Assembly (NCBI GenBank): GCA_052387675.1
Contig: JBQTIY010000001.1
Span: 160,227-224,226, forward strand
Reading direction: 5' to 3'
Source: Planctomycetota bacterium
GTDB lineage: Bacteria > Planctomycetota > B15-G4
Length of the DNA: 64,000 bases
This document shows, one piece after another, positions 28,362 to 47,200 of the stretch. The notes beneath the pieces are model-generated. The model was given only the letters and a program-made list of their open reading frames with translations, searched no databases and was not told the origin of the DNA. Position 1 is the stretch's first letter. Each line of letters begins with the position of its first letter. A program made the translations under genes and the position numbers.

Positions 28362-28796
28362 TCAGCTCTTCGCGGCGAGCGCCTTGATGCGCCCCTGGAA
28401 AAACTCGAGGTAGCGCCGGCCCGCGGCCGTCTGCGTGGCGGCCCACTCGGCATTCTTGAAGGCGTGCGGCGCCACTTCCTCGCGATAGCGCGACACGTAG
28501 GGCTGCACCTTGGCGAACAGGAACAGGCCCTCGCCGCCATTCTCCACCAGGTACTCGGCGTTCACGATGCCGTGCCGCCCCATGCCATAGGCCATTTCCC
28601 AGTAGCTCGCCACCTGACGGTAGGCCTCGTTCTGCGGATGGTCGGGGCGCGTGACTGCCAGAAACTCTTCCCAGCTCTTGGGCCAGAACTTGCCCATCAT
28701 CGTGTCGCGCGAGGCGCGCATGACCTCCTCGCGGCGCAGCTCGTAGAGCTTGAGCACGAGTTCGGCATCGTGGTAATCGGCGGCCTCTTTGGACAT
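28362..28796 (-). CDS. Hypothetical protein (144 aa, K/E/Y-rich, compositionally distinct), terminal gene of the long minus-strand operon
   Basis: ORF-track ORF with good coding-like composition and no recognisable motif; 9-nt gap to the upstream PSOR gene. Confidence 0.45.
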   Translation of the reverse strand: MSKEAADYHDAELVLKLYELRREEVMRASRDTMMGKFWPKSWEEFLAVTRPDHPQNEAYRQVASYWEMAYGMGRHGIVNAEYLVENGGEGLFLFAKVQPYVSRYREEVAPHAFKNAEWAATQTAAGRRYLEFFQGRIKALAAKS

Positions 28797-28805
28797 GTGG
28801 ACTCC

Positions 28806-29936
28806 TCAGCGCTGGAAGATCGGAAGATAACCGACCGGCACCTGCAGAGTCAGCGAGACGATGGCCGTCGCGTAGACATTGCCGTAGTCGCCATTCCTGA
28901 ACTGCCCTTCAGGCTGCTGGCGCTCGGCGCTGTCGCGCACAAACTCCGGCCACCAGCGGTCGAAGGCGCGCTGGTCGGCGTGCTGCCAATAGGCCTGCGC
29001 GGCGTAAAGCGCGCCGTACTCCTGGAACATCTCGAAGCGGCCTTCGCCCAGGATCGGGTCGCTGCGCTGCAGCGCGTCGAAGCCCTGCTGCAGGCGCTCG
29101 CTGGAGTAGTCGCCCAGCGCGTTGAGCGTGGCCAGCGCGGCGGCCGTGAGCGCCCAGCTCGTCTTGGGATCGTTGAGCGCGTAGCGAAAGCGTCCGTCCA
29201 CCGGATTCTGCGAGGCCTTGAGATAGTCCTCGGCGCGGCGAATGACTTGGCGCTTCACGGCGAAACCCGCATCGCGTGCCGCGCGCAAGGCCTGCACCAT
29301 GCACACCGTGATCGAACCCTCGTGGTTGGTCGTGGCGCGCGGCTCGTAGTACCAGCCGCCCTGCTGGCCTTGGCTTGACTCGATCAAGTTCACGCCGCGC
29401 TGCACGGCGGCGCGCAGACGCTCCTCGCGCAGCGGATCCTGCCCCGACATGCCGCAGGCCTGCGTCAGCGCCAGCAGCGCGTAGCCCTGGCCGTGCATCT
29501 TGGAGACCGAGTCGGCATCGGTGGTGATGTAGCCGTCTTCGCCGCAGCGATCCACGAGCCAGTCGACCGCGCGGCGCACGGGCACGCCGTGGCGGCCGCG
29601 GTCGGGCAGATGCCCGGCGGCCATGAGCGACAGGGCCGCCAGAGCCGTCACGGCCACCGGCGCGGAGTGGCTGGCCTCGCTGCGCTCGATGGAAAAACTG
29701 CCGTCTTTGTTCTGGCGCGCGACGAGCCAGACGTGCGCGCGCTCGACCATGGCCTGCACGCGCACCGTCTGCAAGCGATCGTCCTGGCGCTGCGCGTGGC
29801 TGCTGCCCGAAGTCGTCGGCAGCGCCACCGCAGGGCCGGCCGACGTGGCCGCGAGCAGCGCCCCCGACAGCAGGCAGGCCGCGGCGATCACGGCCGGTCG
29901 TTCCGGTTGAGCGCGCGGATGTAGGCGTCCATCCAC
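28806..29936 (-). CDS. Secreted prenyltransferase/squalene-oxidase repeat (PSOR, alpha/alpha-toroid, QW-motif) protein
   Basis: Signal-peptide-like N-terminus. Repeated Q-x-x-x-G-x-W/F motifs (QNKDGSF, QGQQGGWYY, QQPEGQF). The C-terminus ...LTLQVPVGYLPIFQR is shared with the paralog at 35258-36454. Confidence 0.8.
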   Translation of the reverse strand: MDGRLHPRAQPERPAVIAAACLLSGALLAATSAGPAVALPTTSGSSHAQRQDDRLQTVRVQAMVERAHVWLVARQNKDGSFSIERSEASHSAPVAVTALAALSLMAAGHLPDRGRHGVPVRRAVDWLVDRCGEDGYITTDADSVSKMHGQGYALLALTQACGMSGQDPLREERLRAAVQRGVNLIESSQGQQGGWYYEPRATTNHEGSITVCMVQALRAARDAGFAVKRQVIRRAEDYLKASQNPVDGRFRYALNDPKTSWALTAAALATLNALGDYSSERLQQGFDALQRSDPILGEGRFEMFQEYGALYAAQAYWQHADQRAFDRWWPEFVRDSAERQQPEGQFRNGDYGNVYATAIVSLTLQVPVGYLPIFQR

Positions 29937-45151: not shown

Positions 45152-46140
45152 CGGCGGCCCAGCCGCGTGCGGCGCGCCGCGAGATAGGCCGAGAGCGCCA
45201 CTTCAAGCGGCGTGGACGTGTCGAGCAAGTGGTAGTCCGCGCCGGCGCGTCCGCAAACTCCGCGCACTTGAACCCGCCAGCGCTCGAGCGCCTCCAAATA
45301 GCCGGTGCGCAGCGCCAGCGGATCAATGAGCAGCCGCTGCGTTTCTTCCAGGCCCTCGAAGCGCGTCAGCCGGTCGAAGGGAAAGCGCAGCTCATCACCG
45401 TGCAGCACGTGCAGCACGATGGCGTCATGCCGGCGCGCGACGAGCGCGCCCAAGCCCAGCGAGAGCGCTTCGACATCGCCGAGCAGGTCGCTCACGATGA
45501 CCACCAGCCCCGGACGCGCGACGCGCTCGGCCACGCGCTGCAGGGCGACGCCGAGGTCGGTGACGCCCTCCGGCCGCCGCTCGACCAGCGCAGCCAGGAT
45601 CGGCTCGAGATGCGCGGGCGCCGTGGAGGCCGGCACAACGCGGTTGAGCACCTGATCAAAAAGCGCCAGCGCCGCGCCGTCGCGCACGCGCAGCACAAGC
45701 TGCGCGATCGAGGCCGCGACCTGGCAGGCGTAGTCATACTTGGTTGCTGCGGTGCCAACCGCGCCCGCGCCCGCGTCACGTCCGTCGGGCGCCGCCGGAT
45801 AGGCCATCGAGGCGCTGCCGTCCACCACCAGCGTGCACTCGAGGTTGGTCTCCTCTTCGTAGCGCTTGATGGCCAGGCGGTCGTTGCGCGCATAGGCCTT
45901 CCAGTCGAGATGGCGCAGGTCATCGCCCTGCACGTAGGGCCGCCGCTCCACGAACTCCACCGACACGCCGCGCTTGGGGCTGCGGTGATGTCCGGCCAGA
46001 AAACCTTCGACCGCGCGACGCGCCGCCAACGTGAGCTGCGCGATGCGTTCGGCGACGGCCGGATCGGGGCGCAGCGAGCGGCCGGCGCGGCTGGGCGCAT
46101 CCGGCCGGCGCGATGACGGCGAGGAGGACTCGGGCGTCAT
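45148..46140 (-). CDS. DUF58 domain protein (MoxR-associated vWA-like)
   Basis: Start MTPESS at 46140. ...RGVSVEFVERRPYVQGDDLRHLDWKAYARNDRLAIKRYEEETNLECTLVVDGSASM is the diagnostic DUF58 core. The ORF-track N-terminal extension is spurious. Confidence 0.85.
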   Translation of the reverse strand: MTPESSSPSSRRPDAPSRAGRSLRPDPAVAERIAQLTLAARRAVEGFLAGHHRSPKRGVSVEFVERRPYVQGDDLRHLDWKAYARNDRLAIKRYEEETNLECTLVVDGSASMAYPAAPDGRDAGAGAVGTAATKYDYACQVAASIAQLVLRVRDGAALALFDQVLNRVVPASTAPAHLEPILAALVERRPEGVTDLGVALQRVAERVARPGLVVIVSDLLGDVEALSLGLGALVARRHDAIVLHVLHGDELRFPFDRLTRFEGLEETQRLLIDPLALRTGYLEALERWRVQVRGVCGRAGADYHLLDTSTPLEVALSAYLAARRTRLGRR

Positions 46141-46156
46141 CCCCGACCCTCGGGGC

Positions 46157-47200
46157 TCAGCGCCCGGTGACCCTGGGGAGACCGCCATCGTGCAGCGCCT
46201 TGGTGGGATGGACCGGGACGGCCTCCAGGAGGCGGTCGATGATGTCGTCGCTGCGCACGCCCTCGGCCTGCGCCGAGTAGTTGGTGAGGATGCGATGGCG
46301 CAGCACCGGGCGCGCGACGCGCTGCAGGTCCTCGATCGAGACGTGGAAGCGGCCCTTGATGACCGCGCGCGCCTTGGCGCCGAGCACGAGGTACTGGCCG
46401 GCGCGCGGCCCGGCGCCCCAGCGCAACTGCGCCTTGACGAAGTCGGGCGCCTCGGGCTGGTCGGGACGCGTCGCGCGCACCAGCGCGGCGGCGTAGGCCA
46501 GCATGTCATCGGCGATCGGCACGCGCCGCACGAGCGCCTGCAGCCGCAAGATCTCTTCGCCGCCCATGATGGCCGGCAGTTCAGCCTGCGCGACCTCGGT
46601 CGTGCGGCGCAGAATCTCGAGCTCGTCCTGTTCGCTCGGGTAGCCCACCGTGACGTTGAACATGAAGCGGTCGAGCTGGGCCTCGGGCAGCGGATAAGTG
46701 CCTTCCTGCTCGATGGGGTTCTGCGTGGCCAGCACGAAGAAGGGATCGGGCAGGCTGCGCCGCACGCCCGCGGTCGTGACCTGGCGATCCTGCATGGCCT
46801 CCAGCAGCGCGGCCTGCGTGCGCGGCGGCGTGCGGTTGATCTCATCGGCGAGCAGCACGTTGGTGAAGACGGGCCCCTCAATGAAGACCAGCTCGCGCTG
46901 ACCGGTCGTGCGATTCTCCTGGATGATCTCGGTGCCGGTGATGTCAGTGGGCATCAGGTCCGGAGTGAACTGCACGCGCTTGAAGTCCAGGGCCAGCGTG
47001 CGCGCCAGGCTGCTGATGAGCAGCGTCTTGGCCAGGCCCGGCACGCCGGTGAGGATGCAGTGCCCGCGCGCGAAGAGCGCCACGATGAGCTGGTCGATGA
47101 CGGCGTCCTGCCCGACAATGACCTTGGAGAGTTCAGCCCGCAGGCGGTCGTAGCCGGCCTTGAGCTGCTGGGCGGCCTGGACGTCGTCGGTGGGGATCAT
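46157..47200 (-). CDS. MoxR-family AAA+ ATPase
   Basis: Start MIPTDDVQAAQQL at 47200. VIVGQDAVIDQLIVALFARGHCILTGVPGLAKTLL (Walker A), VLLADEINRTPPRTQAALLEAMQ (Walker B / sensor). The ORF-track TTG-start extension to 47635 is Arg-rich junk. Confidence 0.92.
   Translation of the reverse strand: MIPTDDVQAAQQLKAGYDRLRAELSKVIVGQDAVIDQLIVALFARGHCILTGVPGLAKTLLISSLARTLALDFKRVQFTPDLMPTDITGTEIIQENRTTGQRELVFIEGPVFTNVLLADEINRTPPRTQAALLEAMQDRQVTTAGVRRSLPDPFFVLATQNPIEQEGTYPLPEAQLDRFMFNVTVGYPSEQDELEILRRTTEVAQAELPAIMGGEEILRLQALVRRVPIADDMLAYAAALVRATRPDQPEAPDFVKAQLRWGAGPRAGQYLVLGAKARAVIKGRFHVSIEDLQRVARPVLRHRILTNYSAQAEGVRSDDIIDRLLEAVPVHPTKALHDGGLPRVTGR

Follow-up and report, generated by a model that had tools for sequence, protein, structure and literature searches.

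A conserved Planctomycetota gene cluster that extends a MoxR–DUF58–BatA/vWA core with propeller, DUF4175-type and toroid-type genes

Gene clusters built around MoxR, DUF58 and BatA are among the most widespread in bacteria without an agreed function, and the phenotypes attached to them vary between species. The Bat operons of Bacteroidota and Spirochaetes encode MoxR, DUF58, BatA, BatB, BatC, BatD and BatE. In Rhizobium leguminosarum, a 'broadly conserved operon RL3499-RL3502', as Vanderlinde et al. reportedly called it in the title of a 2011 report, is said to bear on cell morphology and envelope integrity; two of its products, RL3501 and RL3502, presumably correspond in their domains to proteins of the cluster described here. 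That cluster lies in a 64,000-nucleotide stretch of a Planctomycetota bacterium (assembly GCA_052387675.1, contig JBQTIY010000001.1, positions 160,227 to 224,226), which we call the window and number from its first letter; its G+C content is ~70%. A preliminary description had noted eleven co-directional minus-strand genes at 28362-47200, read as a MoxR–DUF58–BatA-like operon with an unusual downstream half. We find a 12-gene core, kept in one order and on one strand across lineages diverged to about 25–35% protein identity: a small membrane protein, a propeller protein of 665 residues (prop665), MoxR, DUF58, a BatA-like protein (BatA736), a vWA-like protein (vWA767), a giant propeller protein, a first prenyltransferase/squalene-oxidase-repeat toroid (PSOR1), a membrane protein (TM743), a secreted helical protein (CC808), a GS239-like protein and a second toroid (PSOR2). 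Our preferred reading, which we hold to be probably right and which takes in the mechanism proposed below, is that the locus is one conserved envelope-spanning system of Planctomycetota, an expanded MoxR(MRP)–DUF58–BatA/vWA–DUF4175 module. The core itself belongs with the MRP-MoxR/DUF58/BatA systems; the whole cluster appears undescribed, since no paper on this gene arrangement was found in searches that reached few subscription journals.

The evidence for conservation comes from two samples of relatives. First, a profile of giant homologues led to 80 loci on contigs from one genome per species, onto which the proteins of the window were mapped by tblastn. All detected genes were colinear and on one strand in 80 of the 80 loci, so the arrangement is not a product of chance. 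By title all of these loci save two belong to Planctomycetota, and one comes from the cultured Engelhardtia mirabilis Pla133 (NZ_CP036287, ~4,350,204-4,372,447), which makes a cultured host available. Presence was counted only over loci with enough DNA to judge (assessable loci, Table 1), and in almost all relatives the downstream genes kept synteny with the MoxR/vWA core. The denominator for PSOR2 is small because most loci end before reaching it, and GS239 is hard to detect in relatives because of its low complexity. Gene sizes are conserved as well, and so are four-nucleotide overlaps between consecutive genes (giant and PSOR1 in 37 of 66 loci, DUF58 and BatA in 27 of 61, BatA and vWA in 22 of 64, GS239 and PSOR2 in 7 of 12). 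In locus L085, whose giant is only 27% identical, independent JGI gene calls give the complete order: enolase, a small protein, a 712-residue protein, MoxR, DUF58, BatA, a 785-residue protein, the giant, a PSOR, proteins of 759, 976 and 289 residues, and a PSOR. Full clusters stand also on contigs L007 and L078, from metagenome-assembled genomes labelled as Gammaproteobacteria (Pseudohongiellaceae and Glaciecola); since the pattern of identities is that of the Planctomycetota loci, the contigs are probably mis-binned.

This comparison also moves the borders of the unit. Iterative jackhmmer searches placed a prop665 homologue next to MoxR, on its upstream side, in at least 34 of 54 loci; many metagenome loci have one in that position too, as does L085, where it is the 712-residue protein. 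Together with the order in L085, this puts prop665 (or the small membrane protein) at the start of the conserved unit and PSOR2 at its end; relative to 28362-47200, the unit gains sequence upstream and loses one gene downstream. The preliminary description had taken MoxR as the first gene and so missed the conserved propeller gene directly before it. Its eleven-gene extent holds for the core genes and fails for the last one: the 144-residue DUF4760 gene is adjacent and co-directional but is not a conserved member, and in L085 the cluster ends with PSOR2, followed by a convergent gene, with the DUF4760 gene absent. At the other end, enolase stands upstream of the cluster in the close relatives L003-L011 and in the distant L085, and is probably a recurrent neighbour rather than a functional member. 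The 107-residue protein encoded between enolase and prop665 has orthologues in L004, L006 and L008-L010, and a 167-residue gene occupies the equivalent position in L085. Neither it nor its orthologues, six of which were included, matched Pfam even at E≤1; an FtsB-like label was dropped for lack of Pfam support, the resemblance to FtsB/DivIC being architectural only.

Second, to offset the reliance of the first sample on the giant, we took a reverse sample through vWA767, consisting of 80 new loci from metagenome contigs that were scanned with hidden Markov models of each family. Upstream of the vWA gene, MoxR, DUF58 and BatA were present in 38 of 41 loci. Downstream, in the 43 loci with at least 4 kb beyond the vWA gene, the giant came next in 33; in 6 a long fused DUF4175-like gene took that place, with GS239-like and PSOR genes after it and the giant absent; one locus (L139) had its whole downstream half inverted; and 3 had nothing recognizable. 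DUF4175-like and/or toroid genes thus stood beside the core in 40 of the 43, 34 of which also had the giant. Over ~93% of the range of the vWA767 family, then, the MoxR/vWA core has DUF4175-like and PSOR genes as companions, and the giant and PSOR1 look like an inserted pair typical of a large clade. The form that lacks both giant and PSOR1 (class B, L157-L166) has seven genes: MoxR, DUF58, BatA, vWA, fused DUF4175, GS239-like and PSOR. For a gene system without an agreed function, this amounts to a fuller parts list, in which DUF4175, GS239-like proteins and exported PSORs are constant partners in Planctomycetota.

Gene calls in the window rest on open reading frame listing and translation, with Pfam and NCBIfam scans of the proteins (Table 1). 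The genes form an unbroken minus-strand run from enolase to the DUF4760 gene, and a convergent plus-strand reading frame ends at 28333, beyond the downstream end of the cluster. These calls bear out the eleven co-directional genes first noted at 28362-47200 and the domains given to them, as well as the prevalence of short overlaps at their junctions. Seven of the ten junctions from MoxR to DUF4760 are overlaps of four nucleotides or one: five ATGA, among them the one that joins DUF58 to BatA736, one GTGA, which contains the start of PSOR2, and one of a single nucleotide. The remaining three are MoxR to DUF58 (−32 or +16 nucleotides, depending on the start), vWA to giant (+11) and PSOR2 to DUF4760 (+9). 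Upstream, the stop of the 107-residue gene overlaps the prop665 start by four nucleotides (ATGA), and prop665 sits 95 nucleotides before MoxR. A promoter and terminator scan of 28000-47900 was uninformative: it gave no promoter, and its 8 terminator-like sites compare with 6.9±3.4 in shuffled sequences. Rfam found a single tRNA in the whole window and nothing inside the cluster.

Table 1. Features of the cluster and its surroundings in the window, with presence among assessable giant-anchored loci; the last two rows concern insertions in relatives and use the coordinates of those loci
Feature	Position	Strand	Evidence and remarks	Present in assessable loci
Enolase	49669-50931	−	Pfam Enolase_N/C; recurrent upstream neighbour	
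107-residue single-pass membrane/helical protein	49290-49613	−	One hydrophobic segment, residues 12-30	
prop665, 665-residue secreted BamB/PQQ-like propeller	47296-49293	−	Signal-peptide-like N-terminus; PQQ_2 9.8e-5, sub-threshold	
MoxR-type AAA+ ATPase, 347 residues	46157-47200	−	AAA_3 1e-61, AAA_lid_2 7e-18; orthologues 59–86% identical	62/63
DUF58 protein, vWA-like	45148-46188	−	DUF58 1e-39; alternative start ATG 46140; adjoins MoxR in relatives	63/64
BatA736, 736-residue BatA_N membrane protein	42941-45151	−	BatA 1e-15, TIGR02226 1e-19	64/65
vWA767, 767-residue vWA membrane protein	40641-42944	−	VWA 2e-4, sub-threshold	69/70
Giant, 1392 residues, secreted	36451-40629	−	PQQ_2 3e-22	
PSOR1, 398-residue secreted alpha/alpha-toroid-type protein	35258-36454	−	Sub-threshold SQHop_cyclase/Prenyltrans/TED; orthologues 43–74% identical	67/71
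PSOR1 C-terminal tail	35258-35281	−		
TM743, 743-residue inner-membrane protein	33030-35261	−	N-terminal two-thirds of split DUF4175-type protein	62/65
CC808, 808-residue secreted A/E/L/R/Q-rich helical protein	30604-33030	−	DUF4175 profile positions 619-749, 2e-5, sub-threshold	54/58
GS239, 239-residue secreted G/S/P/Q-rich protein	29888-30607	−	Signal peptide, low-complexity linker	
PSOR2, 361-residue secreted toroid-type protein, GTG start	28806-29891	−	SQHop_cyclase_C 2.5e-11, Prenyltrans 1.5e-6, both above threshold	15/17
PSOR2 C-terminal tail	28806-28829	−		
144-residue DUF4760 protein	28362-28796	−	DUF4760 7e-21	1/9
ECF sigma/FecR-like insertion	L016 ~14465-16446; L033 14943-16760; L023, L049, L058, L073, L079			
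Peptidase_C25 insertions	L091 12350-14623; L144 12876-15023 and 15117-17198		Sublineage of 62% G+C	

The first four genes from MoxR onwards resemble the head of a Bat operon. MoxR scores 206.9 bits against AAA_3 (cut-off 27). BatA736 scores 58 bits against BatA (cut-off 25.9) and 70.6 bits against TIGR02226 (cut-off 23), and is laid out as a BatA_N double-transmembrane hairpin, a vWA domain with a metal-ion-dependent adhesion site (MIDAS), a large predicted periplasmic domain and a C-terminal transmembrane anchor; Pfam did not pick up its vWA domain. vWA767 has an N-terminal transmembrane hairpin, a MIDAS-vWA domain, a GATase1-like region (its L085 orthologue matches GATase1_like at 9e-5) and a C-terminal transmembrane anchor. 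Its VWA score of 21.8 bits falls below the 23.8 cut-off, with MIDAS motif and hairpin both present, and it may take a BatB-like role. Sequence searches of BatA736 and vWA767 against the PDB gave nothing significant. The MIDAS signature DxSxS is invariant among orthologues of DUF58 (56/56), BatA736 (63/63) and vWA767 (65/65). The locus shares with Bat operons an MRP-type MoxR followed by DUF58, a membrane protein of the BatA_N hairpin/MIDAS-vWA type and probably a second one, helical-repeat partners and a plausible envelope location. It differs in that MoxR heads the Bat operon, whereas a propeller gene precedes it here; in its BatA-like proteins, which reach twice the normal length and carry additional domains as well as an anchor at the C-terminus; and in having no BatD and no TPR or SH3 protein detectable by sequence. 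None of the 14 proteins matched a BatD or TPR (BatC/BatE) family of Pfam at E≤0.01, and in their place stand a split DUF4175-type stalk, the 1392-residue giant, a second propeller protein, the GS239-like protein and two PSORs.

The shared content of MoxR, DUF58, BatA_N and vWA would fit the proposal made for Bacteroides, in which a Bat-type system serves aerotolerance or the response to oxidative stress; it would provide reducing power or protect periplasmic proteins under oxygen stress. In Riemerella anatipestifer, moxR and batA mutants of the bat operon are indeed affected in survival of heat and oxidative stress (PMC11834572). By contrast, deletion of all bat genes in Leptospira produced no oxidative-stress phenotype (PMC3557215), and Pfam and NCBIfam detected no redox domain in the cluster proteins, which also lack a BatD or Bat TPR match. 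We regard this role as quite improbable as an explanation of the locus; moreover, it labels a phenotype, not a mechanism, and would be compatible with a conserved envelope-spanning system.

The middle of the downstream half turns out to have known relatives. The AF2 model of TM743 (predicted local distance difference test score, pLDDT, 91) has three transmembrane helices, a 73-residue cytoplasmic loop (residues 76-148), tandem immunoglobulin (Ig)-like beta-sandwiches (residues 189-515) and a C-terminal helical bundle, and Foldseek returned from the PDB only generic tandem Ig/MG domains (TM 0.1–0.2) with no specific homologue. Its family, which carries no annotation, counts 18,394 representatives at E≤1e-3 (5,999 at the stricter E≤1e-30) and is one of several large unannotated families to which this analysis assigns a context. 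CC808, which has a conserved C-terminal domain, scores 23.0 bits against DUF4175 (cut-off 27.3), a weak match to the C-terminal part of that model, and 28 of 44 CC808 orthologues match DUF4175 at E≤0.01, the best at 2e-8. A profile search with the TM743 family reached proteins of 1150–1430 residues. In one of these, P0091, residues 69-714 align to TM743 (2e-19) and residues 1005-1121 to CC808 632-751. The TM743-like region of P0091 lies above the DUF4175 threshold (32.2 bits), as do P0099 (76.6 bits) and the fused gene of L162 (41 bits). Since P0091 spans both proteins, and both it and the L162 protein pass the threshold, TM743 and CC808 are best seen as the halves of a split DUF4175-type protein; the corresponding architecture is present, with N-terminal transmembrane helices in TM743, a long extracytoplasmic region, and a low-complexity helical tail in CC808. 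AdvA, a division protein of Acinetobacter, is the only subject of the DUF4175 literature that we found.

In another lineage (L082), a DUF4175 gene stands with a TPR/Peptidase_MA_2 gene, MoxR, DUF58 and BatA, which makes the DUF4175 part of the downstream half a known companion of the core. The preliminary description had held the downstream half to lie outside described MoxR–DUF58–BatA clusters; for the DUF4175 part this does not hold, and for the arrangement as a whole it stands, as far as the papers found go. Clusters of the L082 kind, with a BatA of the TIGR02226 type, share with the locus MoxR, DUF58, BatA_N/vWA, a long DUF4175-type protein and a low-complexity helical tail. Unlike them, the present cluster has DUF4175 split in two, a constant PSOR and GS239-like protein, and the giant and PSOR1 inserted; class B is a bridge between the two. 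GS239 itself consists of a signal peptide, a helix, a low-complexity G/S/P/Q linker and a conserved C-terminal motif, WGxLPxxhR[ED], and in L081, L083, L084 and L085 the DUF4175-like gene is followed by one for a protein with this architecture and this motif.

The giant had been put at 1407 residues and described as a propeller/TPR protein. That length applies only from an upstream ATG at 40674, and the NCBI start gives 1392 residues. The propeller is confirmed by Pfam; no TPR family matched by sequence, and helical repeats are visible only in an AF2 model of residues 200-1392 (pLDDT 85.5), as an alpha-solenoid. The model runs from propeller through solenoid to second propeller, and the protein divides approximately into a helical N-terminus, a BamB-like propeller (240-648), the solenoid (650-939) and a second propeller (960-1390). 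All of the top 16 Foldseek matches in the PDB were BamB (E ~1e-14, TM on the target 0.64–0.75, the best 0.72–0.75), and the first propeller is closest in fold to BamB, an eight-bladed PQQ-like propeller. Public annotation calls the giant a 'BamB family protein'. The BamB models, however, score it at 33.8 bits (TIGR03300, cut-off 285) and 19.7 bits (PRK11138, cut-off 423), and it differs from BamB in being 3.5 times larger, in its two propellers and solenoid, in lacking a canonical lipobox and in its genomic context. Judged from the model, the resemblance is one of fold, not of family. The giant has ~30 full-length homologue clusters. Across homologues its N-terminal 230 residues are conserved, with a consensus and invariant columns.

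A MoxR, vWA proteins and a TPR-like propeller protein are also the ingredients of the MoxR–vWA–beta-propeller 'ternary' conflict or defence systems (Kaur, Burroughs, Iyer and Aravind 2020, eLife), which have been reported in planctomycetes (PMC7159879), and our MoxR does match Pfam bpMoxR, at 38.7 bits. In those systems the vWA protein carries a C-terminal propeller of about four blades, the P-loop GXXXTAKS is frequent though not universal, and a third component has a hypervariable N-terminal region followed by TPR and propeller (PMC7159879). Here DUF58, BatA736 and vWA767 match no propeller family, and transmembrane anchors and GATase1-like regions are found instead; the P-loop reads GVPGLAKT rather than GXXXTAKS, and AAA_3 scores far above bpMoxR. 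The N-terminus of the giant is conserved and carries a signal peptide rather than a transmembrane effector region, and its domain order is propeller–solenoid–propeller. DUF58 and BatA_N are present, the neighbours are housekeeping genes, and the distribution is phylum-wide, not patchy. PADLOC matched none of the core proteins, and the defence reading, which we consider highly improbable, was dropped on that account. The MoxR–vWA–YebA transglutaminase operon (Zhang and Aravind) was set aside as a different system, there being no TGL protein in this cluster.

The two toroid proteins had both been labelled as PSORs. PSOR2 is above Pfam thresholds (43.6 against 26.1 bits for SQHop_cyclase_C, 28.3 against 26.5 for Prenyltrans); the PSOR1 scores of 22.4, 21.9 and 15.9 bits are all sub-threshold. 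Scores against the NCBIfam cyclase models lie far under their cut-offs. Sequence searches of both against the PDB gave nothing significant. What unites them is their C-terminus: the tail [YF]LP[IL]FQR-COOH ends 65 of 67 PSOR1 and 10 of 10 PSOR2 orthologues, and both PSORs of the window end in LPIFQR. The two PSOR1 exceptions resemble miscalled gene ends, and the PSORs beside the fused DUF4175 genes of L081 and L084 share a tail of the LPIFQR type. This invariant tail may belong to the fold, or it may act as a docking peptide or as a ligand for a MIDAS. The scores of PSOR2, including a weak match to ent-copalyl diphosphate synthase (E 0.014), and the many invariant polar residues of PSOR1, which suggest a defined pocket, would suit terpene cyclases or prenyltransferases in a lipid- or isoprenoid-modification pathway. 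Such a pathway is nonetheless very hard to reconcile with the rest, and we give it scant credence: neither PSOR contains the DxDD motif of class II cyclases, and each shows one or two QW-like repeats only; for PSOR1, no enzyme family reaches its threshold; signal peptides would export both proteins away from the isoprenoid diphosphate pools; and the cluster holds no further isoprenoid genes.

How might these proteins be arranged? Neither MoxR nor DUF58 has an export signal, and DUF58 is without a transmembrane segment or signal peptide; signal-peptide-like N-termini begin the giant, prop665, PSOR1, PSOR2, CC808 and GS239. In BatA736 and vWA767, the loops between the N-terminal transmembrane helices are arginine-rich, as is the C-terminal tail of vWA767; by the positive-inside rule, their MIDAS-vWA domains are predicted to be periplasmic. 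In the Borrelia BatA homologue BB0173, the vWA domain has been located in the periplasm by experiment (PMC5700661). The predicted topology of TM743 is a basic N-terminus, a transmembrane hairpin, a cytoplasmic loop, a third transmembrane helix and a periplasmic body. From these sequence features we infer a cytoplasmic location for MoxR and DUF58, an inner-membrane one for BatA736 and vWA767, a membrane-spanning TM743 with its Ig/helical stalk in the periplasm, and export of CC808, GS239, both toroids, the giant and prop665. The envelope location first suggested for the cluster is thus plausible, every non-cytoplasmic component having a signal peptide or transmembrane anchors. The accompanying suggestion, that MoxR/vWA would load or remodel the propeller and toroid proteins, meets a topological barrier if MoxR is to do so directly: nothing in MoxR or DUF58 would export them, whereas the Sec-type signal peptides of the propeller and toroid proteins would take these out of the cytoplasm, and the vWA domains of both membrane proteins are likewise placed in the periplasm by prediction. 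On the predicted topology, any coupling of MoxR to the exported proteins must pass through the membrane proteins.

The mechanism that we propose follows that route. DUF58 would act as a MIDAS adaptor for a cytoplasmic MoxR hexamer, gripping cytoplasmic loops or tails of the membrane subunits, for which the loop of TM743 is the best candidate. ATP hydrolysis would then drive assembly or conformational switching of a periplasmic scaffold, while the two periplasmic MIDAS-vWA domains would hold acidic ligands of exported partners. The DUF4175 stalk, the giant and the toroids would serve as structural or ligand-binding modules for envelope integrity or for quality control of envelope proteins. A bolder version, which we hold improbable, is a phylum-wide trans-envelope machine in which MoxR and DUF58 are mechanically coupled, through the DUF4175 stalk and the MIDAS-vWA anchors, to the propellers and toroids and so build or maintain an envelope structure specific to planctomycetes. 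Such a structure may be, for example, a tether from the outer to the cytoplasmic membrane, or the machine may be an alternative assembly factor for outer-membrane proteins or surface structures; the [YF]LP[IL]FQR-COOH end of the toroids could then be the carboxylate ligand of the MIDAS sites. If the products of the cluster do form a single complex, it would represent a new kind of energized envelope assembly in a phylum known for unusual envelopes.

Several observations weigh against a single envelope-spanning system that works in this way. The coupling of cytoplasmic MoxR and DUF58 to periplasmic partners is purely inferred. MIDAS sites favour acidic ligands, but the loops on the cytoplasmic side are basic. 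In the window, TM743 has no match to Pfam DUF4175 (PF13779) and CC808 stays below its threshold. The bat genes of Leptospira have independent promoters, and their deletion is without phenotype (PMC3557215). In one subclade, genes for an extracytoplasmic function (ECF) sigma factor (Sigma70_r2/r4_2) and a FecR-like anti-sigma factor are inserted between PSOR1 and the TM743 orthologue, which implies an internal promoter at that point. Finally, sub-modules live apart: L039 has the half from giant to PSOR2 without MoxR upstream; L081 and L084 carry genes for a fused DUF4175, a protein of ~250 residues and a PSOR, and no MoxR gene lies within 10 kb of them; and L083 has DUF4175 and giant genes without an adjacent MoxR, so that modules can be dispersed in other Planctomycetota.

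This separate occurrence in L039, L081, L083 and L084 is what one would expect if two or three independent modules were merely neighbours, namely MoxR–DUF58–BatA–vWA, giant–PSOR1 and DUF4175-like/GS239/PSOR2. The inversion of the downstream half in L139 points the same way, as do the insertions tolerated at the module borders (ECF sigma/FecR genes; C25 peptidases) and the spacing between the vWA gene and the giant, which is the loosest junction (median ~195 nucleotides). Against mere neighbourhood, colinearity is kept in more than 100 loci down to 25–30% protein identity, far outlasting usual neutral gene order; DUF4175 is tied to MoxR–DUF58–BatA in the giant-less class and in L082 too; and all of the modules have a predicted envelope location. 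We therefore treat independent modules as a serious but less likely explanation, and prefer a single conserved system.

The genes recruited in sublineages are all related to the envelope: ECF sigma factors with FecR-like anti-sigma factors, Peptidase_C25 and TPR/Peptidase_MA_2. The ECF/FecR insertion hints at control of the downstream half by extracytoplasmic signals. Gingipain-like Peptidase_C25 genes with propeptide domains lie between the vWA gene and the giant in two loci of the reverse sample, and with the TPR/Peptidase_MA_2 gene of L082 they mark peptidases as recurrent accessories.

Two of the loci with dispersed modules have further features. In L039, a protein of 1.7 thousand residues of the TIR-CHAT-STAND(NACHT/AAA_16)-TPR kind, a defence or conflict type, is encoded at 2392-7602 and precedes the giant-to-PSOR2 half. 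In L083, the region 10001-20713 encodes a fused DUF4175-like protein, a GS239-like protein, an SGL/NHL protein and a 1480-residue TPR/PQQ_2 giant, with a lone DUF58 gene nearby; the genome carries planctomycete-typical SBP_bac_10 genes.

Elsewhere in the window, the first 6 kb have a G+C content of 0.57–0.61 against ~0.70 and encode an Mrr-type restriction endonuclease (793-1707), the S component of an ECF-type riboflavin transporter, a 768-residue ABC-ATPase-like protein and a DUF4145 protein. They adjoin tRNA-Gln(CTG) at 6392-6465 on the minus strand, and the region 1-6500 looks like a tRNA-associated acquired or defence island. A few kilobases downstream of the cluster, 25130-25717 holds a DUF6036/DUF2204/AbiEii-like nucleotidyltransferase gene of the toxin–antitoxin type. 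At 58360-60069, a gene for a B12-binding radical SAM protein falls within a dip of G+C (0.63) and has unusually low first-position G+C; a 698-residue FG-GAP repeat protein is encoded beside it (region 58360-62214).

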